IMG/VR virus record: IMGVR_UViG_3300009095_001812
Coordinates: 120,990-184,989 of that record
Strand: one strand, 5' to 3'
From: a virus
Lineage: Duplodnaviria; Heunggongvirae; Uroviricota; Caudoviricetes
DNA: 64,000 bases
The notes under the pieces were generated by a model that was given only the letters and a program-made list of their open reading frames with translations, made no database searches and had not been told where the DNA came from. Positions 1 to 63,052 of this stretch are shown here, piece by piece; positions within the stretch are counted from its first letter, which is position 1; the number at the start of each line of letters is the position of its first letter. The position numbers and the translations under genes were made by a program.

Positions 1-273
1 GATGTATTTGTTCTTATCACTGATGAACAACAGAATGCAGGTACGCGACTCATGACTGCTTGGAAAGAGTACCGTTCTAAGGTCAATAAGAATGCTCAGT
101 TGTGGGTTGTTAACGCAACAAACTACCAGTGGCACTCTGCTGATTTTGGAGATTCATCAATCACTGTGTACCAGACCATGACTCCAGCACTATTCAAGAA
201 CCTTGAATATGTTGGTCAGAATCTAACGCAGGCAATTCGCAAGTTCTCGCTCTCTGATTTTGCGAAGAAGTAA
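1..273 (+). CDS. C-terminal fragment of a gene that starts upstream of the window; function unknown (possibly a vWA-like C-terminal domain)
   Basis: Open frame running from the window edge to a stop at 271-273. The tracked ORF at 52..273 is only the internal-Met version. Confidence 0.4.
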   Translation, partial: DVFVLITDEQQNAGTRLMTAWKEYRSKVNKNAQLWVVNATNYQWHSADFGDSSITVYQTMTPALFKNLEYVGQNLTQAIRKFSLSDFAKK

Positions 274-920: not shown

Positions 921-1138
921 TCACCTGCTCCCTGGGTACTCTACAATCCCAAAATATGCACAACGGAAACATTTAGCAGTCGAGAGCAGCTAATTTTTTT
1001 ATATTATATATAAGTAACGCGAATGAAGTTCATTCATCTTTATTTTAAAATAAAACCATTTCCGGCGTGAGCCGGGCTTGGACTTCAAAATTTCGTTACT
1101 GCTCTATTTGATGTGAATCTCGCGTAGAGCGCCAGAGG

Positions 1139-2047: not shown

Positions 2048-2602
2048 ATGGCTGAACCAATTATAATTACGTTTGTCGATCTTGAAACAACTGGATTTGA
2101 TTCTAAGAAATGTGAAATCATCGAAGCAGCAGCTGTACGCTCTATTGTTGATGATGGAACTATCAGAATCGTAGCTCGTGCAGATTTCAAAATAGATCCG
2201 GAATATCCAGTGGATCCATTTATTGCAAGAATCAATGGGTACAGAGAAGATGTTTGGTATCAAGAAAGCTCTCAGTTTGAAGATGTAATTGGTGGTATTT
2301 TTGACCTGATGAGGGGAGCTTGGCATGCTGGCTCTAATCCTAGGTTCGATGAAAAATTCCTTATGAGAGCTGCAAAGATGCTTCGCTGGGATTATCCCAA
2401 ACTAGCATCTTATCATCTGTTGGATGTTAGTATGTTAGCTTTTCCTTTATTGGTAAAAGGGGAGGTCGAGAACCTTCGCCAACAGACGATTTGTAAGTAC
2501 TATGACATTCCCGGTGGAGGTCATAGAGCACTTGCCGACGCAATGCAGTGTCTTTATTTGTTTGCCAATATCAATAATTTGAAAGTTGTAACGGAGCAGT
2601 AA
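2048..2602 (+). CDS. DnaQ-like DEDDh 3'-5' exonuclease (DNA pol III epsilon-like)
   Basis: 184 aa. Exo I motif FVDLETTG near the N-terminus, H-x4-D near the C-terminus (GGGHRALADA). Confidence 0.75.
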   Translation: MAEPIIITFVDLETTGFDSKKCEIIEAAAVRSIVDDGTIRIVARADFKIDPEYPVDPFIARINGYREDVWYQESSQFEDVIGGIFDLMRGAWHAGSNPRFDEKFLMRAAKMLRWDYPKLASYHLLDVSMLAFPLLVKGEVENLRQQTICKYYDIPGGGHRALADAMQCLYLFANINNLKVVTEQ

Positions 2603-3477: not shown

Positions 3478-3824
3478 TCTTTGGTAATCTTCTGGGCTGC
3501 TTTTATTGGTTTTTGAATTTTTAGTATCCCGGATTTATATTAAAAGTTCGGGATACTAAGAGGTTCTATGAGAGTGGTGAGATGAAACCCTTTATAAAAC
3601 GATGTGGCTCACTCTTAAAAATAAACGAAAGTGTATTATTTAATATGGACACGAAGATTTATGAATCCGTTATTCCTGAAGATTTTGGATGGATGAAGAG
3701 AAGTCCAGCTAGAAGAAGATTGGTCTTTCGATGATCCTGTTAGTGCAATCCGAAAGTTTGAAGAACTCAGGCATGAATCTGAAATGGGCGATGATTACGA
3801 TACCGTTCATTACTTGAAATCAAA

Positions 3825-4828: not shown

Positions 4829-5495
4829 ATGGAATCTGTTGTTATCGAAATACGTGCCGCTGAAGGTGGTGCGGATTCAAAGTTGTTATGTGAAGATATG
4901 CTCGTAGCGTACACGAAAGCGGGAGACCGGGAGCGTCTTTGACTCGGAACTCCTAGAGTCTCAGCCTGGCTTGATAGTTATCTTATTCAAAGGAAGAGGA
5001 GCCAAAGCACTTTTCAAAAACGAAGCTGGAGGTCACCGCTGGCAGCGAATACCTCCAACTGAAAAACGTGGTCGTGTCCAAACATCTACCGTTACTGTTG
5101 CTGTTTTAGATCCAGAACCATCTACAAAATTTGTTCTCGATGAGAAGGATGTTGAAATAAAGACAAGTCGAGGATCGGGTCCTGGTGGTCAACATAGAAA
5201 CAAGACAGATTCATGTGTAACGGTTACACACAAACCAACCAAGACATCCGTTCGCATTGACATGCGAAGTCAACATCAGAGCCGTGAAATGGCTCTGAAA
5301 GTTCTTGCGGCCAAATTGGCAGATGAGTCAACCAATTTGGATCGAAAGGACAGAGAGCGACTTCGCAAGTCTCAGGTGGGATCTGGCATGCGCGGAAATA
5401 AAATCCGCACCTACAGATTCCAAGATGATCAAGTAACTGATCATCGAACGGGAAAGTGTTGGAAACTTAAAAAATGGATACGAGGCGAGTGGTAA
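4829..5495 (+). CDS. prfB: Class I peptide chain release factor homolog (RF2-like, N-terminally truncated) with a programmed +1 frameshift
   Basis: Frame 0 (4829..4939) encodes MESVVIEIRAAEGGADSKLLCEDMLVAYTKAGDRERL, matching the EIRAGAGGDEA region of release factors. It stops at TGA 4940-4942 inside the classic RF2 shift site CTT TGA C, with an SD-like GGGAG 3 nt upstream. The +1 frame (4941..5495) continues with GGHRWQRIPPTEKRGRVQTS, SGPGGQHRNKTDS and the conserved C-terminal RSQVGSGMRGNKIRTY..VTDHR. An AAGGAG RBS sits 7 nt before the ATG. Joined product is about 221 aa. Confidence 0.8.
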
Positions 5496-5767
5496 TGAAA
5501 TACGAAGAATATCAGGTTTGGTTTCACGCTTACAATACAGCAATCTCCTCATTATTGAGAGCTGGAGATGTGGGACCAATCATCAAAAGAAGCGATGAGG
5601 TTCCGAAACTCACCCAAAATGTCATTGGTTGTGCAGATCAAATCGCGGCTCACGCACTAGAGAAGTTCAAGCAAGTAGATAACCCAAAGGTAGAAAACAT
5701 GCCTTCGGAATTTAAAAACATAGTTGAACAGGTAGCAAAAGAGGCGTTGAAACGTGGCAAGCCCTGA
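5474..5767 (+). CDS. Hypothetical protein
   Basis: 97-aa ORF overlapping the end of prfB. Confidence 0.5.
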   Translation: MDTRRVVMKYEEYQVWFHAYNTAISSLLRAGDVGPIIKRSDEVPKLTQNVIGCADQIAAHALEKFKQVDNPKVENMPSEFKNIVEQVAKEALKRGKP

Positions 5768-6350: not shown

Positions 6351-7042
6351 TGAGTAAAGAAATCTTGCTTATTGAGCATGTTGCATCTTGGCTCGCAAAA
6401 TATATGGAAGAGTCTGGAAGAAAGGTTTTTATTGTAAATTACAACGGAGCACGCTCTGACGCTCTTGTACTGAAAGTTTGCTCGGAAGCCACATCAATCA
6501 AAAAAGGTTTGAGTACAATTTGTTTGTATCAAGATTTTTTTCCCAAAGAATTTATGGGAAGGTCTTACAAAATAGATATTCCTGTTATTCCAAACATCAC
6601 TGGTACAGAATATATGATTGCTAACAAGTGGGCAGATGATAAAGACGGTGTTGTTATTGGATCTGTTGATAAAACGTTTGGTAAATACAAAAGAACTTAC
6701 ACAAAAATTGAATACTCTTTGTGTGATATATTTCCATTATATGATTTGTACTACTCAGAGATTATACATCTAACGGATTTTATATGGCCTGATGCTAAAT
6801 GGAGAGATGCCGAGGTCGATGACTACAAAATGCTTGAGTTCTGTGTAAGGGCTGAGAATTCGTTCGGAATCATAACCTCTACGAATCCTCCTCATAAACA
6901 TGAGATGTGGCATACCTTTACGGGAACTCAGAAAAAATTCGTTGCTGAATGTCAACAGCGCGAAAAGAAGACGAGACACAAAGAGTTAAGAAAGCCATAT
7001 CCCAAAATACCAGATAATATAGGATTATATAATGGCCGATAG
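6338..7042 (+). CDS. Hypothetical protein (N-terminus faintly PP-loop ATPase-like)
   Basis: 234 aa. GRKVFIVNYNGARSDALVLKV resembles a degenerate SGGxDS PP-loop. Confidence 0.5.
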   Translation: MEYLMSKEILLIEHVASWLAKYMEESGRKVFIVNYNGARSDALVLKVCSEATSIKKGLSTICLYQDFFPKEFMGRSYKIDIPVIPNITGTEYMIANKWADDKDGVVIGSVDKTFGKYKRTYTKIEYSLCDIFPLYDLYYSEIIHLTDFIWPDAKWRDAEVDDYKMLEFCVRAENSFGIITSTNPPHKHEMWHTFTGTQKKFVAECQQREKKTRHKELRKPYPKIPDNIGLYNGR

Positions 7043-7892: not shown

Positions 7893-8101
7893 AATTTGGA
7901 GGGATTATTTTAGGGGCTTTGGGAAATGGTTTTTTCTCAGTTGGCATTGATCTCGAAAACGGTTCTGAGCCGAAGCGTACTATTTGTCAGCTGTCAGGTA
8001 AAATGAGAATCAAGACCATCAAAGTTGTCGAGGGTGATAAAGTTGATGTAGAGCTTGATCCATATGACATGAATAAGGGCAGAATTGTTCGCCGCAATTA
8101 A
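7874..8101 (+). CDS. infA: Translation initiation factor IF-1 homolog (S1-like OB fold)
   Basis: 75 aa. The C-terminal SGKMRIKTIKVVEGDKVDVELDPYDMNKGRIVRR aligns closely with E. coli IF1 ([34 protein letters not shown]). Confidence 0.85.
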   Translation: MSGDKLKFGGIILGALGNGFFSVGIDLENGSEPKRTICQLSGKMRIKTIKVVEGDKVDVELDPYDMNKGRIVRRN

Positions 8102-8642
8102 AGGTATCTATCAACCTACGAATGATGCGAAAAGGAAAGAAATGAATAAACCAAGTGATCACAACCCAAAGGGACTTTTAAAATTCATTAAGGGTGATGC
8201 AACTCTTCCTCAAGGAAGCTCTCTCCGATATGTTCTTCAGATTGTAAATGATGAAGGTAAGTATGGAGCTGGTTTTTCTGGCGCTCTATCAAGACGCTGG
8301 CCAAAAGTAGAGTCCGAGTATAAACAATGGTGGCGCGAAAAATATGGTCAATTGAAACTAGGTGATATTCAAATCATCCAAGTCCTTAGCGATCTTGTTG
8401 TCGTCAATATGGTAGCTCAAAAAGGTGTTGTCTCTAAAGAAAATCCAACACCTATCAAGTACGATGCTTTGAAAGCTTGTCTTTCAAAAGCTGGTGTTGA
8501 GATTTCAAAATACAATGCTTCCGTTCATATACCTCGCATTGGTTGTGGGCTCGCTTGTGGTAAGTGGGAAGAGGTTGAGCCACTGATCGAACAAGAACTG
8601 CTCAAGCGAGGTATCAATGTCACGGTGTATGATAAAGAATAG
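8085..8642 (+). CDS. Macro domain protein (ADP-ribose / O-acetyl-ADP-ribose processing)
   Basis: 185 aa. IVNDEGKYGAGFSGALSRRW matches the macro-domain glycine-rich motif (NAAN..GGGVagAI). Confidence 0.65.
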   Translation: MFAAIKGIYQPTNDAKRKEMNKPSDHNPKGLLKFIKGDATLPQGSSLRYVLQIVNDEGKYGAGFSGALSRRWPKVESEYKQWWREKYGQLKLGDIQIIQVLSDLVVVNMVAQKGVVSKENPTPIKYDALKACLSKAGVEISKYNASVHIPRIGCGLACGKWEEVEPLIEQELLKRGINVTVYDKE

Positions 8643-15469: not shown

Positions 15470-15783
15470 AATTCTTTTTCCTCATTCTGGTATTGAGCCT
15501 TTACAGCTTTACCATATATGATTTTGGTCCAACCATTTTCAAATCCGTGATTGTTTGCAATCATGTATTTTCCATCGGAGTCTATCTTTGTAATTTTGTG
15601 AGCGTCGATATATCGACCCTTTACCTTACAGAAAACGATATCTCCAATTTCATATTTTTCTTGTTTGATAAAAGTAAGCAATGAACCAGATTTGAGAATT
15701 GGAACCATTGAGGATCCAAAACATTTCATTTGCCCAGAGCCGGTTGCTGCTAACTTTATCTTCAAAGCTTCATATTTGCTCAT
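15466..15783 (-). CDS. Hypothetical protein
   Basis: 105-aa ORF. Confidence 0.5.
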   Translation of the reverse strand: MSKYEALKIKLAATGSGQMKCFGSSMVPILKSGSLLTFIKQEKYEIGDIVFCKVKGRYIDAHKITKIDSDGKYMIANNHGFENGWTKIIYGKAVKAQYQNEEKEL

Positions 15784-16307
15784 TACGCAGTTAGACCTAA
15801 AAGCTCTCTCCCTTTATCATGAGAACCTTGTGTAAGCGCCATTGCATCAGGTCCAGCAAGCTTTCTGAACGTTGCTTCGTGAACAAGCTCATCCTTTAGA
15901 ATGCGCTGAAAAATTTTACGAATATCCTCAGGAGCCTCATCATCATCTGCAATGACTTTTATACGCTCAAGGCGCATTGCCTCTGCGTGGGCTCCAACAG
16001 CAGCACCGGTTTCAAAGGAGTCAATGTAAGGAAGAGTTTGTTTCCAATATTTCTCCTCTGCGTTATCAATATCTGGAGTTATGTCCCGAGCAATCAATAA
16101 GTCCAGAACCCAGATAGCATGCATCTGTTCTTGATTAGCAATCACCATCAAATTACGAATTACATTCGTATCATTTGAGTACTGATGAGCAAACCTAGTG
16201 ATTCTATTGGCGGCTGTAATCTCACCCCTGTATTGCTTGACAAGCCAATCTGTTAGAAGAGCTGGGTCTTTCTTTACTTCAGTCCACCATTCTTGTGATG
16301 TCTTCAT
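15783..16307 (-). CDS. Ferritin-like diiron-carboxylate protein (two ExxH motifs)
   Basis: 174 aa. NQEQMHAIW and KDELVHEATF give two ExxH motifs spaced as in ferritin-like or MiaE-like four-helix bundles. Confidence 0.45.
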   Translation of the reverse strand: MKTSQEWWTEVKKDPALLTDWLVKQYRGEITAANRITRFAHQYSNDTNVIRNLMVIANQEQMHAIWVLDLLIARDITPDIDNAEEKYWKQTLPYIDSFETGAAVGAHAEAMRLERIKVIADDDEAPEDIRKIFQRILKDELVHEATFRKLAGPDAMALTQGSHDKGRELLGLTA

Positions 16308-19878: not shown

Positions 19879-20301
19879 TCATAGCCCGAGTTTCATTTTC
19901 AATTTTTGATTATATTCCCCAAAAGGACCATTAAGTACATCATTCCAAGTAACCCATTTAGCAGGTCCGGCATCACCTTGCTCTGGAACCTGATCGATGT
20001 TTCCATGATAGAAAAATGTAGTTACTTTAAATGGATAATCCACCCGCTCGAACACAGGTTCGAGCTTGGTCTTGTCAAGTTGAATGTGGGCTTCTTCCCA
20101 AACCTCGCGTACCAAAGCTTCTAGAGGAGTTTCTCCAGGGTCAACCTTACCACCAGGAAGTCCCCATTCATTGGTAGTGCCTCTACGGGCTACACCAAGT
20201 ATTTTGTCACCTTTGAGCGCACAGACGCAAACCGCCTGTCGGGGCTCTACGTCTTTTGCGTACTTACGTGCCATTTCAAATAGAACTTCTATTTTACCCA
20301 T
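19879..20301 (-). CDS. Nudix hydrolase (MutT-like)
   Basis: 140 aa with a clear Nudix box GGKVDPGETPLEALVREVWEEAHI. Confidence 0.8.
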   Translation of the reverse strand: MGKIEVLFEMARKYAKDVEPRQAVCVCALKGDKILGVARRGTTNEWGLPGGKVDPGETPLEALVREVWEEAHIQLDKTKLEPVFERVDYPFKVTTFFYHGNIDQVPEQGDAGPAKWVTWNDVLNGPFGEYNQKLKMKLGL

Positions 20302-21701: not shown

Positions 21702-22607
21702 TTATCCCATTAATTGGATGCTAGAATATTCAGTGTTGCTCAAATCAAAATCGACTACGTTTTTCTTCAAGTGATCAATGTAGTACTGAACATCTTCACC
21801 TCCTGATATTTCATGAGATGTAATCTTGCTTTCTAGTTTCTTTCGAATATCACCGATCTTTGGACCAAAAGGAACGTTGAATTCTTTTGCGATGACATTA
21901 CCCAATCCCTTAGGTAGTGTGTTTTGCTTTGAATCAATCTCTTGAATCTTGAGAACTCTTTCTCTCAACTCTTCAATAGAATCAAGAATTTTTTGTTTCT
22001 TTGCTTGATTTGCTGTTGTGATATCAGCACTTGATAATGTAAGAATATCATCAAGATGATTTCCTATATCTTTACCAAAACGACGCACAGCGGAGTCTGT
22101 CCACTCAGATGAGTAGCTTTCAACATATCCCAAATTTCTTACAAGGAAATAGATCCTATCTCTTTGTCTTTGAGAGAAGATTCTAGAACGCTTTGCAAAG
22201 GCGCTAAAGATTTGAGCTGAGATTTTCTCATGGTTGTGGAATGTTACTTTTTTGTTCTTGATTGAGAATGCACGAGCCTTTCCAAGATCATGAAACAGAG
22301 CTGCCCATCTCAGGATTGTTACTGGTGGTGTTTGACTTACAACACGAATTGTGTGCGGCCAAATTTCCTTGAACCGTTTTGATGATTTCAGCTCCAAAGA
22401 TTCTCTGATTTCCGGAATGAGATATTCAAAGAATCCAGCTCTCTGAAGCGCAACAAGGGCAATGCCAACGTGAGGGCCTCTTACAATTTCGTGAAGAACC
22501 ATCAACTGATTTCCTAATGCCCGTACATCTTCGTTTGTGATGGGTTTAATTTTACCATCACAAATTCCAGTAATTGCAAGCTGTTGAGCTTGTTTTAGCA
22601 GTTCCAT
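21702..22607 (-). CDS. HD-domain phosphohydrolase (resembles the HD module of bacterial CCA-adding enzymes / 2',3'-cyclic phosphodiesterase)
   Basis: 301 aa. H...HDLGK motif at WAALFHDLGKA, plus downstream conserved His/Asp residues. Confidence 0.65.
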   Translation of the reverse strand: MELLKQAQQLAITGICDGKIKPITNEDVRALGNQLMVLHEIVRGPHVGIALVALQRAGFFEYLIPEIRESLELKSSKRFKEIWPHTIRVVSQTPPVTILRWAALFHDLGKARAFSIKNKKVTFHNHEKISAQIFSAFAKRSRIFSQRQRDRIYFLVRNLGYVESYSSEWTDSAVRRFGKDIGNHLDDILTLSSADITTANQAKKQKILDSIEELRERVLKIQEIDSKQNTLPKGLGNVIAKEFNVPFGPKIGDIRKKLESKITSHEISGGEDVQYYIDHLKKNVVDFDLSNTEYSSIQLMG

Positions 22608-22933
22608 TATATCACTATAACTTTCTTATTGGATATAAAGCTATCCATATCTATTTTGGCTTCATAATCAGAGTAGTCTACACAAATCTCTTCATCTTTC
22701 TTTATAGCTTGAAGAGCGACAAAATGCCAATCTCCATTGATCTTTTGACAGACAGCATTTGGAGTTTTTGAATCATTTATCAAAAGTCCAAAAGTATTTC
22801 TTTGGTACACTTTGACAAAGTTATCATCATTTACAAGAGGAAGAGAAACCCCTATATCCTCACCTTTTTTGAGATTTGTTGAAGCAAAAACTCCATTACC
22901 ATGAATGCTAGATTTTTGTACTTTCCACTTCAT
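22607..22933 (-). CDS. SET-domain protein (small lysine methyltransferase-like, vSET-sized)
   Basis: 108 aa. SIHGNGVFA (GxG), INDSKTPNAV (NHSxxPN-like) and EEICVDYSDY (ELxxDY) in the canonical SET order. Confidence 0.6.
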   Translation of the reverse strand: MKWKVQKSSIHGNGVFASTNLKKGEDIGVSLPLVNDDNFVKVYQRNTFGLLINDSKTPNAVCQKINGDWHFVALQAIKKDEEICVDYSDYEAKIDMDSFISNKKVIVI

Positions 22934-27308: not shown

Positions 27309-28013
27309 ATGAAGATAGCTGTAATATCAGATTTACATATTGGACATTCTGAAGAAACACACCAGCTAGGTCATACAGATCATGATTTTGCAAATTTTCT
27401 TTTTGAACTAGAAAAGAGATATGATAAAATTATTCTTTTAGGAGATATCTTTGAAGTTGAAATGGAGATAGTCAACACTGAAGAAGATACGTATGAAATG
27501 TCAGTATCTGAACACCAAGCTATTACCAAAAGATTCAAATCTGACAAGTACATATATATCTTTGGCAATCATGACACTATCGCTAGAAAGTATGGTGCTG
27601 TTGAGCAATACCAGATAAGATATAAGGGTAGGAGTTATCTTTTTATTCACGGTCATCAATTTGACCGTCTCTACCAAACTGTGAAATCAAAAGTTGCAGT
27701 TTTCGGTGGCCTCTGTCTTTTGTTTGGTTTTAAGGTACTTTACCGATGGACTTCTGAAAGCTTTCCAACTTTAAGAAGTGAGAATGAGTTGTTTCAAAAA
27801 ACGGCTATTGAGCATGCTGCTGGTACTGGTTGTGAATTCATTGTCACTGGTCATACTCACGATCCGATGATTATAAAAGATCATATTACTTATATCAACT
27901 CAGGTACCTGTACTTATGGCAGGATTTGTTATGTGCACATGGATCTTGAAAAAGAAGAATACTTGATAAAAACCAACGATGTATTTGTCAGGACTTCTAT
28001 CTTTCCTACATAG
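27309..28013 (+). CDS. Calcineurin-like metallophosphoesterase
   Basis: 234 aa. DLH, GDIFE, GNHD and GHTHD motifs in the canonical order. Confidence 0.75.
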   Translation: MKIAVISDLHIGHSEETHQLGHTDHDFANFLFELEKRYDKIILLGDIFEVEMEIVNTEEDTYEMSVSEHQAITKRFKSDKYIYIFGNHDTIARKYGAVEQYQIRYKGRSYLFIHGHQFDRLYQTVKSKVAVFGGLCLLFGFKVLYRWTSESFPTLRSENELFQKTAIEHAAGTGCEFIVTGHTHDPMIIKDHITYINSGTCTYGRICYVHMDLEKEEYLIKTNDVFVRTSIFPT

Positions 28014-29565: not shown

Positions 29566-30068
29566 TTTTCACCAATATCGTATTTAATATCTCTAACCTT
29601 ATCACTGAACTCTCTAATAGACATATCAAGATTACTTAATGTTTCTCCAGTATTTTCCATAACAGAATGTTTCAAGCTTTCAATGTCTTTTTGATAGTTG
29701 AGCACAGAATCATTTATAATTGATACAAGATCTTCTTTATATGAAGCAATATCTTGTTTAATATAATTTAAATTTTCTTTTGATTCATCTATTTCTTCTT
29801 TGATTTCTCCCAAAGAATTCTCAAGAGATGAAAGCTCTTCTTTGGCATCTTCAATTTCCTTTTCTAACTGATGATATATTTTTTCAAGAAGTTCTGTTTT
29901 ATTATCAGATGGTTCAGTAAAAACCTCTCGAATGATAATCCTCTCCTTGGAAGCAGGTATTACAGATTTAGACTTATTTGATAAATCAATAATAAATATC
30001 ACAAAGACAGTTGCAAAAACACCAACAAAAACACCAGCTAGAAATTGCATATTATTTAGCTTATCCAA
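29562..30068 (-). CDS. Membrane-anchored coiled-coil protein
   Basis: 168 aa. N-terminal transmembrane helix followed by a coiled-coil. Confidence 0.5.
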   Translation of the reverse strand: MDKLNNMQFLAGVFVGVFATVFVIFIIDLSNKSKSVIPASKERIIIREVFTEPSDNKTELLEKIYHQLEKEIEDAKEELSSLENSLGEIKEEIDESKENLNYIKQDIASYKEDLVSIINDSVLNYQKDIESLKHSVMENTGETLSNLDMSIREFSDKVRDIKYDIGEK

Positions 30069-30492
30069 TTAGTTTTGAATACTCTTCTGGAGATATACAA
30101 TCATGAGTAGCGTACTCATCATCTTGTTCTGGTTCTATAATTAGAAGCCAACCTTTATCCAACGGAGATTCATTTATAAGTTCTGGTTGATTTATAAGAT
30201 CTTTGTTGATAGCTATGACAGATCCGGTAACTGGAGTGTAAAGATCACTTAAAGTCTTCACGCTTTCTATTGTACCTATTTCAGAACCTGCTTCGATAGA
30301 ATCGATATTACAAACATAAATATCAATCATCGTAATATCACCAAGTTGATCAACGGCAAATGGAGTGATTCCAATTACCCAATTTCCGTCTTTATTTTTT
30401 CTTGCCCATTCATGTGTTGGGGTATAAAGACAATCATTTCTAACTTCAGTATTCATGTGCTTCCTTAAATTAAGTATATAGAGAGGTTTCAA
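30061..30492 (-). CDS. gcvH: Glycine cleavage system H protein-like lipoyl-carrier protein
   Basis: YTPTHEWARKNKDG.WVIGITPFAVDQLGDI and the lipoyl-lysine motif ESVKTLSDLYTPVTGSV align with E. coli GcvH (ESVKAASDIYAPVSGEI). The true start is probably an internal Met. Confidence 0.7.
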   Translation of the reverse strand: MKPLYILNLRKHMNTEVRNDCLYTPTHEWARKNKDGNWVIGITPFAVDQLGDITMIDIYVCNIDSIEAGSEIGTIESVKTLSDLYTPVTGSVIAINKDLINQPELINESPLDKGWLLIIEPEQDDEYATHDCISPEEYSKLIG

Positions 30493-46146: not shown

Positions 46147-46863
46147 CTATTCCTCGACTTGCTCTAAAAGCACGTCGATATACTCCCGGTTTTCTTGAAA
46201 CCGTGGAATCTCAAGATCGGTTGATCCATTTACCAATACACACCAACCTCTTTTATTGATTGTAGGTATTTGTTCCCAATCTATACTTTTCTCATCAAGA
46301 AGCATCTTCTTCATTTCCTTGCAAGACTTACCCTGCAACATTCTGTGAGAAAAATGAGCCTGTGCCAATGAAGAAACAGAATTTCGTTCAGCGTCTTGTT
46401 GTCTCCAAACAAAATAGTTACACGCCTCTTCTCTTGGTATTACAAAAGCTCTGGAATCAAACATTGCCAATTTAGAAATGACAATCTTTTCATCCATCAT
46501 ATATTTGTTGAAATATGCCGTGGCGATGGATGCAGACACAGATACAATCTTTTGTAACTCTTTTCCAAACCACGCCTGAGTTTCAAAGTTCTCGTAATCA
46601 TTTACTAAAATGGATATTTCATCAGATTGGATGTACGCAAGTTTTGCACCCTGGATGTTTTCCATTAGTCCTTTGGCAGCTTGAGTCATTGCACTTTGAA
46701 TACTCTGATCAAAGGGCCTGGTAAAACCCTTTGTATATGAGTGAAATGCTTTACCATCGCAGCGAATTATCATAGGCATGCGTGGGGTTAGGGCAATTTT
46801 AGAGACGTTCTCATAACTTTTCATTCGGTTGCCTAAAGATGATTTCTCCATTTTACCTCTCAA
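46147..46863 (-). CDS. Thg1-like protein (tRNA-His guanylyltransferase family; 3'-5' polymerase / tRNA 5'-end repair)
   Basis: 238 aa. IRCDGKAFHSYTKGF..PFDQ and YIQSDEISILV align with Thg1 motifs (RxDGRxFH..., QSDEYSF). Downstream YFVWRQQDAERNS resembles the Thg1 WRQ(A/Q)D motif. Confidence 0.75.
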   Translation of the reverse strand: MRGKMEKSSLGNRMKSYENVSKIALTPRMPMIIRCDGKAFHSYTKGFTRPFDQSIQSAMTQAAKGLMENIQGAKLAYIQSDEISILVNDYENFETQAWFGKELQKIVSVSASIATAYFNKYMMDEKIVISKLAMFDSRAFVIPREEACNYFVWRQQDAERNSVSSLAQAHFSHRMLQGKSCKEMKKMLLDEKSIDWEQIPTINKRGWCVLVNGSTDLEIPRFQENREYIDVLLEQVEE

Positions 46864-52406: not shown

Positions 52407-52407
52407 G

Positions 52408-52488
52408 TCCGTGCGGAGGGATTCGAACCCCCACGCTTTTCAGCAGCGAATTTTAAGCTCACCGTGTCTGCCATTCCACCACGCACGG
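52408..52488 (-). tRNA. tRNA-Leu (anticodon UAA), intron-less copy
   Basis: Acceptor CCGTGCG / CGCACGG, type II D-arm GTG-GAATGGCAGA-CAC, anticodon arm GTGAG-CTTAAAA-TTCGC, 13-nt variable arm, T-arm GGGGG-TTCGAAT-CCCTC, discriminator A. Confidence 0.75.
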
Positions 52489-53054: not shown

Positions 53055-53228
53055 TAGTGACGAAAAAAAGCGAGACCATTTTTTATCGGCGTCCTAGTCC
53101 CCTAGACGAAACTCGCGAGTTGAGAAGATAAAGATCTCAAAATGGGAATTTTAAGTTCCCGGTGCGAGCTGGGAGATTCGAACTCCCGTTTCCGGCTTGA
53201 TGCGATGAATGATCTCTGTCGCGTCACT
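53055..53228 (-). ncRNA. Permuted/split tRNA-like cassette 1: tRNA 3' half upstream of its matching 5' half, enclosed by a conserved leader/trailer
   Basis: Read 5' to 3' on the minus strand. Leader outer-stem strand AGTGACG (revcomp of 53222-53228). Motif CGCGAC-AGAGATCATTCATC. Then GCATCAAGCCGG-AAAC, T-arm GGGAG-TTCGAAT-CTCCC (53171-53187), acceptor 3' strand AGCTCGC (53164-53170), discriminator A, CC. Next is the hairpin GGGAA-CTTAAAA-TTCCC (53144-53160) and a 27-nt spacer. Then the acceptor 5' strand GCGAGTT (53110-53116, 7 bp complementary to AGCTCGC with one G-U), TC, D-arm GTCT-AGGGGACTA-GGAC, G, CCGAT-AAAAAAT. Trailer: GGTCTCGC-TTTTTTT-CGTCACTA (53055-53077). Leader GAGATC pairs with trailer GGTCTC, and leader GTGACG pairs with trailer CGTCAC. 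Confidence 0.5.
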
Positions 53229-53634: not shown

Positions 53635-53748
53635 GCAACGAAAATGTGTCGACAAATTGCAGAACCAACACTGCGTCCAAAGCTTACGCCCTGGATAGGA
53701 ATCGAACCTATGAATCTAATAAAGATGAAATGTCAACTTGCGCGTTGC
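53635..53748 (-). ncRNA. Degenerate copy of the leader/trailer tRNA-like cassette (T-arm and acceptor-like module only)
   Basis: Leader outer GCAACG (revcomp of 53743-53748), CGCAAG, inner stem strand GTTGAC, conserved ATTTCATC. T-arm ATAGG-TTCGATT-CCTAT plus CCAGGGC-G. Trailer inner stem GTCGAC (53648-53653), ACATTTT, outer CGTTGC (53635-53640). No complementary 5' acceptor strand or D-arm found. Confidence 0.35.
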
Positions 53749-54298
53749 GTAAAGTTTAATTGAGATTCAATTTCTTGAATGAATTTATCACAACAACCAT
53801 CAACTGAGTTGTGATACTTGTACCTGTAGATGAGTGCGGTTCTCTTGTGTAAGGAACATACCATCTCAGTTCTTTCAACCTGAATGAGATCCGCTTCACC
53901 GGTCATCATTATTATATCCAGGTATTAGCTGTCTTTTACAGCGTTCGAGGATAAACCCTCGACCTCTTCTTTTAGTACTTTTGTAACTTCAATACAAATC
54001 AAATGTAATGGAATGAACTTTTGATAAACAGGAATATTTACATGTGGGTTTTCATTACCCCAATAATTATCTTTTAACCATTTTTCAATACCCATTTCAT
54101 TTTCAGTATTCAAAAGAAGTTCGGTTATTGAGTTAGATTTCTTTTTTGAATTCATGTGAAATCTGATTATCTATCACGTACAAACCAATCAAATCTTCAT
54201 ATACACAAGGATCATCTTCTGACATTGATAATGGAGCAACATCAGGAATATTTCCTCGATCTAATTCGGCTTCACAGCAATCAAAAATTGCTCGCCAC

Positions 54299-56131: not shown

Positions 56132-56732
56132 TCACTCATCGAGTGTCTCTGTGTATGCATCACTTAAGTCCGAACCGATGTTTTTTAATCGATCCCAAGT
56201 GAATGGCCTTGGGTTTTCACGCAATAATGATGCTCCAACCGAATCCAGCGCGATGTCGACTGGGAGGAGCGCTGTTTTGACGCTTGCACTGCCTAGTTTT
56301 TTGATTGCTCTGAAAATACTCATATTCTAAAATATCCTTTGCCTTCTCTTTCGATTCTATCTTTTTCTGTGAGTCTAATTAGTTGTTGATCAACTTCTGT
56401 CATAACTGAACTAAGACGTGCAGAAAAACCAATTGAAGATCTTGGAGCATCATGATACTGGTCTGATACGATTGAAATCAGATCAATTTGTTGACGCGAG
56501 CAGAACTGTTCAAACTTTATATCTTTCATTAGGTACTCGATAAACTGAAAGTATCAGGAATGAAATGAAGTGTCCAGCTTGATTCTAAAACCCAAAACAT
56601 TACAGATTTGTTATCCGAATCCATAAAATCAGGAAGTTGTTTTAGATGGTTTTGACACAATGAAAATATGAGCATTGGACTAATACTATCACACGGCGGT
56701 ACGTATGTCAAGCCATTTTTTATAGTGTTCAT
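56132..56732 (-). CDS. Three consecutive small hypothetical ORFs (56132..56323, 56320..56529, 56529..56732)
   Basis: 63, 69 and 67 aa, same strand, with start/stop overlaps. They sit upstream of the rfb operon. Confidence 0.35.
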
Positions 56733-57507
56733 TAGGTCCTAAAATTTCATCAGTTTTAGATGTGTCCAGAACGCTATAACTAGGGCGCAAGGCCTGCCTT
56801 GGAAATTCATTTGTAGAACAAGGCTTGATATTACAGGAAGATCCTACCTTGTGAGAAATGTCTTTTGCAAACTCAAACCACGAACAACTACCTCCATCTG
56901 TAATATGAAAAGTTCCAGTTTGTTTCAGATCGATTAGCTTCAAAGTTCGCTGGGCCAAACCAATTACATGAGTAGGGCGGCCGAACTGATCATTAACTAC
57001 ACTAATTTCATCTTGGGTATTCAAAAGGCGTAACATTGTTTGTAAAAAATTATTACCCCAAGGAGCGTAAACCCAACTTGTCCGAATCAAAAGATAATTA
57101 GCACCAGATGATTGAAGTAATTCCTCACCACGAAGTTTGGAACGCCCATAAGCATTAATGGGACTTCTTTTATCGTCAGTTTTATAAGGTGTCTCTGAAG
57201 ATCCGTCGAAAACATAATCTGTACTAAAATGTACAAACTTTGCACCAACAATAGCGCACTGTTCTGCAAGACTTCCAACTGCATCGCCATTAACGCGAGA
57301 GGCTATATCCTCTTCCTTTTCGGCATCATCAACTTTTGTATATCCTGCGCAGTTGATTACACAATCACCAACATCAATTGGTAATTTTAAATTTTCAAAC
57401 TTACACAAATCAGCTTGGGCTCGATCTAAAAATATAGATTCTTTTGGTAAGAGCTTTGTAAAAGCTTTTCCTAATTGACCACTGGATCCTAGAATAATAA
57501 ATTTCAA
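56689..57507 (-). CDS. rfbD: dTDP-4-dehydrorhamnose reductase
   Basis: 272 aa. N-terminal GxxGxxG Rossmann motif (ILGSSGQLG). Position and size fit RmlD as the last step of the operon. Confidence 0.75.
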   Translation of the reverse strand: MKFIILGSSGQLGKAFTKLLPKESIFLDRAQADLCKFENLKLPIDVGDCVINCAGYTKVDDAEKEEDIASRVNGDAVGSLAEQCAIVGAKFVHFSTDYVFDGSSETPYKTDDKRSPINAYGRSKLRGEELLQSSGANYLLIRTSWVYAPWGNNFLQTMLRLLNTQDEISVVNDQFGRPTHVIGLAQRTLKLIDLKQTGTFHITDGGSCSWFEFAKDISHKVGSSCNIKPCSTNEFPRQALRPSYSVLDTSKTDEILGPNEHYKKWLDIRTAV

Positions 57508-58052
57508 AATATTTCCTTATAAACAGGAAGATTTTTGATATCTTTCAAAAAAGGAGCTTCACTATCTTTTGAAGAAAGTAATGGATTTTCTATAGGCCAT
57601 GGAATATTTAAATCAGGGTCTCTAAATGATATACTCATTTCACAAGATTTTTCATATACATTAGTACATTTATATAAAACATGAGCACTATCACTAAGAA
57701 CACAAAACCCATGAGCAAATCCGGGCGGTACGTAAAATTGATATTTGTTTTGAGAGTTTAGTTCCGTAGCGCAATATCTACCAAATGTTGGAGATCCTAT
57801 TCGAACATCAACTGCAACATCCCAAATACATCCCGTAATAGCCATGACCAATTTTCCCTGATCATTTGGATGTTGTAAATGTAAACCACGTAAAGTTCCA
57901 TTGTATGAATATGAAAGATTATCTTGAACAAATTTTATTTCTTGAGGAAACGATCTTATAGAAAATGTTTCCGTAAAAAATCCACGATAATCAAAAATAA
58001 CACGAGGTTTAATAAGTAAAACCTCAGGTATTTCTTGTTGAACAATTTCCAT
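57504..58052 (-). CDS. rfbC: dTDP-4-dehydrorhamnose 3,5-epimerase
   Basis: 182 aa cupin. RGLHLQ and the His/Lys/Tyr catalytic pattern match RmlC. Confidence 0.75.
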   Translation of the reverse strand: MEIVQQEIPEVLLIKPRVIFDYRGFFTETFSIRSFPQEIKFVQDNLSYSYNGTLRGLHLQHPNDQGKLVMAITGCIWDVAVDVRIGSPTFGRYCATELNSQNKYQFYVPPGFAHGFCVLSDSAHVLYKCTNVYEKSCEMSISFRDPDLNIPWPIENPLLSSKDSEAPFLKDIKNLPVYKEIF

Positions 58053-58925
58053 TTATATTTCCTTTTTTAACAAAGAATTTAAATATTTTGCATAATCTGT
58101 TTTTCCTAAAGAACTTATACTCTTTCGCAGATCGGGTTCGGTTATCCATTTCGAATTGAAAGCAATTTCTTCTGGGCAAGCAATTTGCAAACCCTGCTTT
58201 TCCTGTACCGTTTGTACAAACTGAGATGCTTGTAACATTGCTTCTGGAGAACCTGTATCAAGCCAAGCAATACCCCTACCAAGTTTTACACATAACAAAG
58301 AACCATTGTTGAGATACATTCTGTTCAAATCTGTTATTTCCAATTCACCTCGGGAAGATGGCTGTAGTGTTTTAGCAAATTCAGAAACCCGATGGTCATA
58401 AAAATAAAGACCAGTAACCGCATAATTACTTTTGGGTTGCTTTGGTTTTTCTTCAAGTGATATGACTTGACCCAACTGATCAAATTCAGCAACTCCATAT
58501 ATTTCAGGAGTTGCTGTGTGATATCCAAATATTTTAGCGCCGTGAGTTAGCTTGGCCGCATTCTGTAACTCACCTTGTAAACCATGACCAAAGAAAATGT
58601 TATCACCAAGAACAAGTGAGCACGGTTCGTTATTGATAAATTTTTCACCAATGATAAATGCTTGAGCTATACCATTTGGAGATTGCTGAACTTCCTGTTG
58701 AATATTCAAACCCCACTGAGAACCATCGCCAAGAGTTTTAGAAAAAGACTCTTTATCTTCGGGTGTTGTTATAACAAGTACATCTCTAATTCCGGCAAGC
58801 ATTAGTACGCTAAGCGGATAATAAATCATAGGTTTATCATAAACAGGAATTAGTTGTTTACTAACACCTCTAGTAATTGGAAATAATCTAGATCCTGTAC
58901 CACCAGCTAATATAATTCCCTTCAT
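58053..58925 (-). CDS. rfbA: Glucose-1-phosphate thymidylyltransferase
   Basis: 290 aa. N-terminal [16 protein letters not shown] is the classic G-x-G-T-R-L nucleotidyltransferase signature. RmlA-like throughout. Confidence 0.85.
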
Positions 58926-59977
58926 TCAATACCACGCTTAGTATAGTTTTCTTCAATCCAAAATTGGTATTTGCCAGATGTAACTGAATTTACCCAATCT
59001 TGATTATCTATATACCAATCTACTGTTTTTTGTAGACCAGATTCTATTGTTTCTTGCGGGGACCAACCACACTCTTTTCTTATCTTGGTTGAGTCAATCG
59101 CATATCTTAGATCATGCCCTGGACGATCTTTTACATAAGTAATTAAAGATAAAATATCATCTTCAGACTCTCCTAGTTTTTTAGAAAGCAAAGTGCATAA
59201 AGCTTTAATAAGATTTATATTTGAACATTCATTATTACCACCTACATTGTAAGTTTCTCCAACTCTACCATTTTCATGTACAGCCCAGATAGCAGAACAA
59301 TGATCTTCAACATATAACCAATCACGTACGTTTTCACCTTTACCATAAACAGGTATTGGTTTTCTTTGTAGTACATTACTAATTACCAAAGGTATTAGTT
59401 TTTCTGGAAACTGATATGGTCCATAGTTATTTGAGCAATTAGTTATATTAACAGGAAGTCCGTATGTTTTATGATACGCTCGAACTAAATGATCACTAGA
59501 CGCTTTAGAAGCTGAATAGGGACTAGAAGGATCATATGGTGTTTTTTCTGTAAACAAACCATTCTGATCTAAAGACCCATATACTTCATCAGTACTTACG
59601 TGATGAAAGATAATTGATTTTTGTTTTCTGGATTCTTCGAGTAAATTGAATGTTCCAATTATATTGGCTTGTATGAAAGCTCCAGGTCCAAGAATACTAC
59701 GATCAACATGACTTTCTGCGGCAAAATGAAAAACAACGTCAGGTTGTACTCTTGCAAATAATGATTGAACTTCAATAGGATTTGAGATATCAACACGCGA
59801 GAATTCGTAATTTCCAAGCTTAGAAATATTTTCTAGATTTTGTAAATTAGCTGCGTATGTCAAATTATCTGCATTTACAAAATGCACTTCTTTCATTATT
59901 GGTACTGATTTTAGTAAAAAATTAGAACCAATAAATCCAGCCCCACCTGTCACTAAAATTTTCTTATCAAAATCCAT
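58922..59977 (-). CDS. rfbB: dTDP-glucose 4,6-dehydratase
   Basis: Start reassigned to [18 protein letters not shown] (ATG 59975-59977). The tracked ORF's extra N-terminus is the translated tRNA-Val. YxxxK and TGGAGFIGS are SDR motifs of RmlB. Confidence 0.85.
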
Positions 59978-60051
59978 GGTGCAAGATAGAGGATTCGAAC
60001 CTCTGACCACTTCCTAGTCAAAGAAGCACTCTACCGCTGAGTTAATCTTGC
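59977..60051 (-). tRNA. tRNA-Val (anticodon GAC), 3' CCA encoded
   Basis: Perfect acceptor GCAAGAT / ATCTTGC, D-arm ACTC-AGCGGTA-GAGT, anticodon arm CTTCT-TTGACTA-GGAAG, T-arm AGAGG-TTCGAAT-CCTCT, discriminator A then CCA. The CCA overlaps the rfbB start codon. Confidence 0.8.
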
Positions 60052-62603: not shown

Positions 62604-62614
62604 AAATTCTTAGC

Positions 62615-62682
62615 AGTTCTGGAGGGATTCGAACCCTACACGTTCGAAGCGTGCTGCACTAATCCGCCGTGCTACAGAACCA
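62615..62682 (-). tRNA. Noncanonical 68-nt tRNA-like gene (anticodon UCG, Arg-like) lacking a variable region; possible pseudogene
   Basis: Acceptor GGTTCTG / CAGAACT (G1-U72). D-arm GCAC-GGCGGATTA-GTGC, anticodon arm GCACG-CTTCGAA-CGTGT, then directly AGGG-TTCGAAT-CCCT. No nucleotides are left for positions 44-48. Confidence 0.4.
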
Positions 62683-62767: not shown

Positions 62768-62921
62768 AGTAACGAAAAAAGTTGAGACCTCACGCTCCTC
62801 TGCTCTGCCAACTGAGCTACCTTCCCATGAACTGAACCCTAAGGTCCCGGTGGGAAGAGTTAGATTCGAACTAACGACACAAGGTTTTCAATTGATGAAT
62901 GATCTCTAGGCGCGTTACTAA
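62768..62921 (-). ncRNA. Permuted/split tRNA-like cassette 2: tRNA 3' half upstream of its matching 5' half, enclosed by a conserved leader/trailer
   Basis: Read 5' to 3' on the minus strand. Leader outer TAGTAACG (revcomp of 62914-62921). Motif CGCC-TAGAGATCATTCATC, then AATTGAAA-ACCTT-GTGTC. T-arm GTTAG-TTCGAAT-CTAAC (62860-62876), acceptor 3' strand TCTTCCC (62853-62859), discriminator A, CC. Linker GGGACCTTAGGGTTCAGTTCAT. Acceptor 5' strand GGGAAGG (62821-62827, pairs with TCTTCCC), TA, D-arm GCTC-AGTTGGCA-GAGC, A, GAGGA, GCGTGA. Trailer: GGTCTC-AAC-TTTTTT-CGTTACTA (62768-62790). Leader GAGATC pairs with trailer GGTCTC, and TAGTAACG pairs with CGTTACTA. Confidence 0.5.
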
Positions 62922-63052
62922 AACATTTAGTAATTCTTGGAATTTTTCTCGACATCAGATTACATACCAGAACTAATTGATTGTATACCTGTATTCTTTG
63001 ATGCAAAATCAGCTATCAAATTTTCCAATCGAATTATTTGCGGCTCCAGGGA

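Follow-up and report, generated by a model that had tools for sequence, protein, structure and literature searches.

A Thg1-like protein (TLP) is encoded on the minus strand, at 46147..46851, of a 64,000-nucleotide stretch of a Caudoviricetes phage (IMG/VR record IMGVR_UViG_3300009095_001812, positions 120,990 to 184,989), the whole of which is referred to below as the window. The gene certainly encodes a genuine TLP. The occurrence of the family in large phages is known, and this gene is a fairly divergent further member; what is new is that the tRNA-His gene of the contig does not encode a guanosine at position -1 (G-1), having T at -1 and C at position 73, and that the TLP is without a beta-hairpin linked to tRNA repair. 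Because G-1 is not encoded and the hairpin is missing, templated addition or restoration of G-1 on tRNA-His, that of the phage included, is tentatively regarded as the likeliest main job of the enzyme in the phage, at somewhat less than an even chance.

The longest open reading frame (ORF) at the locus, 46147..46863 (-), opens with TTG at 46863 and carries the motifs RCDGKAFH and IQSDEIS. The true start is likely to be the ATG at 46851, judging from the GAGAGG upstream of it, giving a product of 234 amino acids; of the two forms, only this one is on record as a called gene, with the exact product on ENA ERZ27256727 k141_1871243, a contig of 446,112 bp. This one phage contig is the source; it has no fewer than 37 tRNA genes, and the window represents approximately 23.5-87.5 kb of it in reversed orientation. 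A scan for promoters and terminators around the TLP gene gave nothing above chance, and megablast of the locus against GenBank phages yielded no DNA match.

An earlier reading of the window from its letters alone (the sequence-only reading) had proposed a Thg1-family protein with its catalytic carboxylates in place, and this was borne out. The Pfam Thg1 profile (PF04446) matched at 112 bits (cut-off 29.2, E=2.5e-32) over profile positions 2-130 of 130, and PHROG 4717, 'tRNA-His guanylyltransferase', matched with E=2e-88. The Pfam profile of the Thg1 C-terminal domain (PF14413), to which the same reading had also pointed, reached only 16 bits against a cut-off of 26.3; the C-terminal region of the protein aligned with the TLP of Bacillus thuringiensis (BtTLP, PDB 4KGK) through residue 204 by phmmer and to residue 239 by family profile. 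BtTLP matched by phmmer with E=5e-69, as against just 1e-10 to 1e-15 for eukaryotic Thg1 (Candida, human and yeast) and the archaeal MaTLP, and a family-profile search of solved structures gave 3.7e-104 for BtTLP and 1e-17 to 1e-22 for eukaryotic Thg1. By these comparisons the phage protein is nearer to characterised TLPs than to eukaryotic Thg1. A total of 4769 homologues were found at E<=1e-10.

Residues D32, D77 and E78 (D36, D81 and E82 when numbered from the TTG) align with D30/D75/E76 of BtTLP and D29/D76/E77 of the human enzyme, the metal-binding carboxylates of Thg1 and TLPs (residue identities from PMC3701042). This D/D/E set was invariant, and the nucleotide-binding and catalytic residues strictly conserved, across 18 diverse relatives. 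R34 and E18 (TTG numbering) match R28 and E12 of BtTLP, and the position of BtTLP K43 is occupied by Arg. An AlphaFold (AF2) model built on the 18 relatives had a pLDDT of 88 and a pTM of 0.86; the best 32 matches of this model to the PDB by Foldseek were all Thg1 or TLP structures, the top match being 4KGM with a TM score of 0.85. The protein is therefore predicted from its sequence to be an active 3'-5' RNA nucleotidyltransferase acting on tRNA 5' ends.

Where other TLPs carry a hairpin, family-profile alignment to solved structures placed only LVNGS in the phage protein, ahead of the conserved D-EIP-F motif. The same segment is REIQGFNPVSGKEEKSLR in MaTLP, forming the beta-hairpin R198-R215, and IKEFYEKNGALRSRWSV in BtTLP. 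The conserved Arg of the (I/L)RT motif (R215 in MaTLP) is absent, and the AF2 model has a tight turn alone at 203-212 in place of the hairpin. The short form was common to every relative of more than 62% identity; among the 120 closest homologues, 106 of which could be scored, 52 were short and 54 long. Phage TLPs likewise comprise both forms, short in Xoo-sp13 and phiA019 and long in phage G and GAP32. In MaTLP the hairpin binds the tRNA elbow (Kimura et al., PMC4820378). Its deletion abolished binding of truncated tRNA-Phe and left approximately 5% of repair activity, and the hairpin-less mutants still bound tRNAs with a His anticodon in a Thg1-like mode (PMC4820378). Residues F174/N179/R188 of the MaTLP anticodon site are replaced by L/D/K in the phage TLP and by L/N/K in BtTLP. 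When the MaTLP mutant data are transferred to the hairpin-less phage protein, this enzyme would be expected to perform anticodon-independent repair poorly and to favour tRNA-His.

The tRNA-His(GUG) gene is situated at 934..1009 of the stretch that continues beyond the window end (L002), 8.7 kb past that end and approximately 26 kb from the TLP gene. This likeliest substrate escaped the sequence-only reading, being located a short way past the edge of the window. The adjacent tRNA region is found on a 172-kb Logan contig as L003, the tRNA genes of which match those of L002 in identity and position. The gene and the Rfam tRNA model align over their whole length, G1 (934) being paired to C72 and C73 falling at 1009; the base before G1 is T (933) and the CCA end is not encoded. 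The possibility that G934:C1008 represents an encoded G-1:C73 pair in an 8/4 fold (cf. PMC5389517) was considered and rejected. Either fold has the same helix of 12 pairs, a free C1009 and a T before G934, hence G-1 is not encoded. The gene adjoining tRNA-His was discarded as a synteny marker, since its product is a mobile protein of HNH type for which thousands of unrelated homologues exist. A 50-nt minihelix-like element consisting of an acceptor stem and T-arm only (L002 882..931 (+); Rfam tRNA 23.4 bits, E=0.011) ends 2-3 nt before the tRNA-His gene, and is fused by ARAGORN into an implausible 88-nt 'tRNA-Phe(AAA)'.

Most Bacteria encode G-1 in the genome (PMC3061083). BtTLP adds G-1 to C73-bearing tRNA-His with a kcat/KM of 5500 M-1 s-1, 50-fold better than opposite A73 (PMC3061083). 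Since BtTLP adds a Watson-Crick G-1 opposite C73 efficiently, the phage tRNA-His would be, by analogy, the type of full-length substrate best handled by enzymes of the BtTLP class. Under the proposed scheme, RNase P would release the phage tRNA-His (T-1, G1:C72, C73) without the G-1:C73 pair, which serves bacterial HisRS as the main identity element. The TLP would activate the 5'-monophosphate with ATP or GTP, the established chemistry of the family; the incoming NTP would pair with the opposing nucleotide of the 3' strand, and its 3'-OH would attack the activated end. In this manner the TLP would supply G-1 opposite C73, as archaeal TLPs do. The choice of substrate, the site of RNase P cleavage and the need for G-1 in the host are all three presumed. 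The location of the TLP gene within a tRNA-rich region, on the strand of nearly all of the tRNAs, speaks for a role of this kind.

The window contains 23 tRNA genes, of which 21 were predicted by ARAGORN, one, tRNA-Arg(UCG), by Rfam only, and one is an intron-containing tRNA-Leu; a further 14-15 are found in the 9.7 kb past the window end. They are scattered among protein genes. Acceptor stems were paired in all 21 of the ARAGORN-folded window tRNAs, save for the expected C1-A72 of the initiator, on which ground the idea that the phage tRNAs have mismatched 5' ends, like the substrates of mitochondrial 5' editing, was rejected.

An association between TLP presence and tRNA-His genes without G-1 was looked for and could not be shown. 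Five phages or viral contigs in which both could be read gave a mixed picture: the -1 and 73 bases are T and C in the phage described here, C and A in Bc431v3, and G and C both in a phage G-like contig (L007) and in Xoo-sp13, all four of which carry a TLP (a short-hairpin one in Xoo-sp13), and A and A in a fifth contig (L157) with a partial TLP 7 kb away. In the last of these (IMGVR_UViG_3300033463_000109) the partial TLP gene is at 3..98 and the tRNA-His at ~6900..6975; this tRNA has A-1, C1:G72, A73 and a C3-C70 mismatch in the acceptor stem, of the type edited by TLPs in protist mitochondria. As a background sample, a pattern scan of IMG/VR (loci L088-L207) yielded 65 distinct viral tRNA-His(GUG) genes. 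Of 45 tRNA-His genes located in tRNA arrays, 20 were without G-1. A smaller class without G-1 has C1:G72 with A73, and T-1/C73 genes were found in crAss-like and T4-like cyanophage lineages.

Several observations weigh against G-1 addition as the main job. The background sample had G at -1 in 42 of the 65 genes and another base in 23 (~35%), with T-1/C73 in 13; G-1 was missing in two of the four TLP-carrying phages, or three of five if L157 is counted, which is no excess over background. IAS virus, a complete 99.9-kb crAss-like genome (KJ003983.1), has a T-1/C73 tRNA-His at 3553..3627, and searches of that genome by tblastn and HMM found no TLP. Both a tRNA-His of the Bc431v3 type and a TLP were present in 16 Bacillus phages, the -1 base having been read in Bc431v3 alone; approximately 10 others with this tRNA (BCP8-2, JBP901, Deep Blue, Tsamsa and relatives) fall outside the 46 TLP-positive Bacillus records, and many TLP-positive Bacillus phages have no detectable copy of it. 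Xoo-sp13 pairs its short-hairpin TLP with a tRNA-His that encodes G-1, and a related contig (L006, L210 and L211) with a short-hairpin TLP and 27 or more tRNAs has no tRNA-His in the 38 kb read. The argument from the hairpin carries mutant data over from an archaeal enzyme of approximately 25% identity, and BtTLP itself favours 5'-truncated over full-length tRNA by 5-160-fold (PMC3061083).

Strict co-occurrence of the TLP with a tRNA-His lacking G-1 was dismissed on the IMG/VR, IAS virus and Bacillus phage counts: a tRNA-His without G-1 needs no TLP from the phage, nor does the presence of a TLP mean that the phage has a tRNA-His without G-1. Only one of 80 IMG/VR TLP loci had a tRNA-His near the TLP. 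The IMG/VR TLP and tRNA-His loci had no contig names in common and no meaningful sequence overlap, and the tRNA-His loci, in which one partial TLP was seen (L157), were too short to judge TLP presence. A blastn search with the tRNA-His as query, used to locate phage tRNA-His genes, mostly matched other tRNAs.

The main rival explanation is general repair, in which the TLP would restore missing 5' nucleotides (+1, +2, etc.) on whatever tRNA of the phage or host, with the 3' strand as template, whether as quality control or to counter host nucleases. To our knowledge, no host defence truncates tRNA 5' ends, which counts against it. That TLP presence does not follow the -1 base of tRNA-His speaks for general repair. 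Repair of 5' ends is, moreover, the activity preferred in vitro by bacterial and archaeal TLPs (PMC3061083, PMC3701042) and the role given to phage Thg1 in a comparative study of jumbo phages (PMC7824862), and TLP genes lie near genes for RNA ligase or nucleotidyltransferase in phiA019 (~1.5 kb) and GAP32 (3-14 kb). In the present phage, however, the elbow-reading hairpin that MaTLP requires for anticodon-independent repair is deleted, the 5' ends of the window tRNAs are all intact and paired, and Pfam scans of approximately 75 ORFs of the window gave no match to an RNA ligase, polynucleotide kinase, RtcB or Ro60. General repair is a possible explanation, with a chance well below even. It is improbable that the TLP acts on RNAs other than tRNA or on tRNA-like RNAs (small RNAs, or 5' tailing or capping of phage transcripts), or that this phage could dispense with it as an accessory gene of no fixed substrate. 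Such a reading would accommodate the patchy occurrence of the TLP even within one phage genus, the presence of four or more tRNAs within 10 kb at just 6 of the 80 IMG/VR TLP loci, and the few tRNAs near the gene in some TLP phages (phiA019). It sits poorly with the characterised members of the family, all of which act on tRNA, and with the strict residue conservation across the 18 relatives, which argues for purifying selection.

The sequence-only reading had itself grouped the TLP with an HD-domain protein and a Nudix hydrolase as a toolkit for maturing or maintaining split and permuted tRNAs or for reversing damage by anticodon nucleases. All three genes are indeed found in one tRNA-rich region, the window also has an RNase T-like exonuclease, a metallophosphoesterase and a MiaE-like protein, and CCA enzymes have HD domains known to act as phosphohydrolases, which counts for the idea. 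The genes do not form a module, however. Those for the HD and Nudix proteins are 24-26 kb from the TLP gene, with no operon structure and with dozens of unrelated genes in between, including those for a SET-domain protein, GcvH, a Band7 protein, AAA ATPases and a cytidylyltransferase. The polymerase head is missing from the HD protein, the Nudix protein comes nearest to MutT, and the RNA ligase and end-healing kinase/phosphatase required to counter anticodon nucleases were found in none of the scanned ORFs. The split tRNA proved to be an intron-containing tRNA-Leu, and the permuted modules have a closed stem and the layout of YrlA RNAs. The toolkit model is already largely refuted by this anatomy, and what likelihood remains to it is very small.

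The HD(IG)-domain protein (21702..22607 (-)) is related to the C-terminal ~55% of class II CCA-adding enzymes, so that its description as CCA-enzyme-like holds for that part only. Pfam HD matched at 31.4 bits (cut-off 22, E=2.6e-7) and TIGR00277 (HDIG) at 34.3 bits (cut-off 27.6). The actinobacterial CCA enzyme profile TIGR02692 aligned over positions 193-442 of 466 (E=1.8e-30) with 106 bits against a cut-off of 438.8, and the Aquifex A-adding enzyme (PDB 3WFO) at residues 306-508 (E=2e-12). There was no nucleotidyltransferase head and no PolyA_pol Pfam match in the protein, and the two upstream ORFs were without family matches. With the head missing, the protein cannot add CCA; activity as a phosphohydrolase at RNA 3' ends is possible. 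The Nudix hydrolase (19879..20301 (-), 140 amino acids) is MutT-like, matching Pfam NUDIX at 62.8 bits (cut-off 21.1, E=4.2e-17); among NCBIfam profiles the best was MutT and RNA pyrophosphohydrolases were weaker, all under their cut-offs. A strict regular expression for the Nudix box found no match in the protein, indicating that the box is divergent.

The tRNA halves said to need end repair are both exons of a single tRNA-Leu(UAA) gene (38153..38919 (-)), detected by ARAGORN in intron mode with a 682-nt intron in the anticodon loop, and thus require splicing rather than repair of their ends. Once joined, the exons form a canonical cloverleaf. The intron matched an Rfam group I intron weakly (26.3 bits) and contains an ORF for an HNH endonuclease (38320..38790 (+); Pfam HNH and HNH_3). 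An uninterrupted tRNA-Leu(UAA) is also present at 52407..52488.

The permuted cassettes, for which end repair had likewise been suggested, comprise three tRNA-like modules: module 1 (62770..62945 (-)), recognised from its sequence and a weak match to the YrlA core in Rfam; module 2 (53060..53225 (-)), with leader and trailer of the module 1 type and a longer insert in the acceptor loop; and module 3 (53640..53790 (-)), a degenerate copy with a short acceptor-like hairpin, recognised by a T-arm scan and its leader and trailer motifs. Their order is leader, T-arm, acceptor 3' strand, loop or hairpin, acceptor 5' strand, D-arm and trailer. The acceptor-like stem is closed by a loop and therefore offers no free 5' end for the TLP. 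A conserved leader (..AACGCG..AGAGATCATTCATC) and trailer (GGTCTC..TTTTTTCGTYAC) are present in the three modules, and the two are complementary and covary (AGTAACG/CGTTACT in module 1, AGTGACG/CGTCACT in module 2, and GCAACG/CGTTGC). Module 1 matched Rfam YrlA (RF02553) at 29.7 bits (E=1e-4 in a 301-nt search), under the gathering score of 69 but with the core in the correct order; modules 2 and 3 had no Rfam match. By their layout, the modules appear to be YrlA-like tRNA mimics, that is, similar to bacterial Y RNAs. A fourth leader and trailer pair without a tRNA-like insert is present at L002 ~5562..5610, just upstream of a tRNA-Phe outside the window.

Further genes with possible relation to RNA encode an RNase T-family DEDD exonuclease (2048..2602), a calcineurin-like metallophosphoesterase (27309..28013) and a macro-domain protein (8085..8642), all on the plus strand. 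These could act on RNA ends or ADP-ribose, and none is linked to the TLP. The product of 15783..16307 (-), which adjoins tRNA-Ser(GGA), has Pfam matches to both rubrerythrin and MiaE (tRNA ms2io6A hydroxylase) and may be a tRNA-modification enzyme. The region thus shows a loose enrichment of RNA-related genes and no toolkit in the form of a linked module. The tRNA-Arg(UCG) gene missed by ARAGORN (62614..62681 (-), Rfam 40.3 bits) has a short variable region and lies 6 nt from tRNA-Arg(ACG). A suppressor tRNA with anticodon CUA, labelled 'Pyl' by ARAGORN, is encoded at 42358..42434 (-), and a release-factor-like protein of 174 amino acids with a GGQ motif and only the end of a PCRF domain at 4971..5495 (+); together, these sequences hint at stop-codon reassignment or ribosome-rescue functions. 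The related contig (L006/L210) likewise has a tRNA(CUA). A complete dTDP-rhamnose pathway (RmlABCD-like, 56689..60010 (-)), the SET-domain protein (22607..22933 (-)), the glycine-cleavage H protein (30061..30492 (-)) and a PAS-GGDEF diguanylate cyclase-like protein just past the window (L002 2540..3574) are typical megaphage auxiliary genes.

Among characterised homologues, BtTLP (4KGK/4KGM) is the closest to the phage TLP, with approximately 50% identity over 204-227 residues, the same fold, the D/D/E set and the equivalents of R28 and E12; by analogy, Watson-Crick templated 3'-5' addition, including that of G-1 opposite C73, would be expected of it. It differs in the missing hairpin segment and in the Arg at the ATP-contacting K43. 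The tRNA-His of the bacterium that hosts BtTLP encodes G-1, whereas the phage TLP is encoded by a 446-kb phage beside its own tRNAs. The mechanism proposed here is that of archaeal TLPs such as MaTLP (PDB 5AXK), which add a templated G-1 to a C73 tRNA-His whose gene has none; MaTLP itself is approximately 25% identical and has the elbow-binding hairpin with R215 that the phage protein lacks. Eukaryotic Thg1 (human 3OTB, Candida 3WBZ) shares the catalytic domain and carboxylates but is more distant (E 1e-11 to 1e-15, 20-24% identity), is dedicated to tRNA-His through recognition of the anticodon, and adds an untemplated G-1 opposite A73. Nothing points to untemplated addition here, since the phage tRNA-His has C73.

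Closer in setting are the phage TLPs of PHROG 4717, which belong to the same family at 33-51% identity (tblastn), typically in large, tRNA-rich phages: Bacillus phages Bc431v3, BM15, Goe8 and G, Pseudomonas phage 201phi2-1, Xanthomonas phage Xoo-sp13, Cronobacter phage GAP32 and the Lak megaphages. Members are already annotated as tRNA-His guanylyltransferase (PMC2904730, PMC3601020, PMC7824862). The TLP described here has at best 51% identity to that of any GenBank phage, and hairpin length varies among the phage proteins. In all, 164 GenBank phage records contain the family, as do at least 572 IMG/VR stretches. A phage homologue of Thg1 was listed in 2010 for 201phi2-1 (PMC2904730), Thg1 was counted among the 'highly unusual genes' of Bc431v3 in 2013 (PMC3601020), and phage Thg1 was placed with the RNA-repair genes of jumbo phages in 2021 (PMC7824862). 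No paper examining the substrates of a phage TLP was found in the literature searched, and a 2019 review of 3'-5' polymerases leaves phages unmentioned.

Phage Thg1-like genes have thus been annotated for 15 years with their substrates unaddressed in that literature, and the locus is a clean test case, comprising one enzyme and its cognate tRNA-His (U-1, C73) in the same genome. A naturally hairpin-less TLP also tests the model in which the hairpin separates general repair from tRNA-His-specific addition. If the TLP simply carries out generic tRNA repair, the finding is an ordinary one. The more intriguing by-products are the YrlA-like modules and the widespread viral tRNA-His genes without G-1, some of them in phages free of a TLP; how or whether these tRNAs are charged is a side question that may matter more than the TLP itself. 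A stronger form of the tRNA-His reading, rather doubtful at present, holds that the short-hairpin TLPs of giant phages are dedicated tRNA-His maturases, U-1/C73 being encoded deliberately, RNase P cutting at +1 and G-1 being added post-transcriptionally. If true, this would place a tRNA-His identity pathway of archaeal or eukaryotic style in bacterial cells under viral control, and would begin to explain the approximately one-third of sampled viral tRNA-His genes that do not encode G-1.

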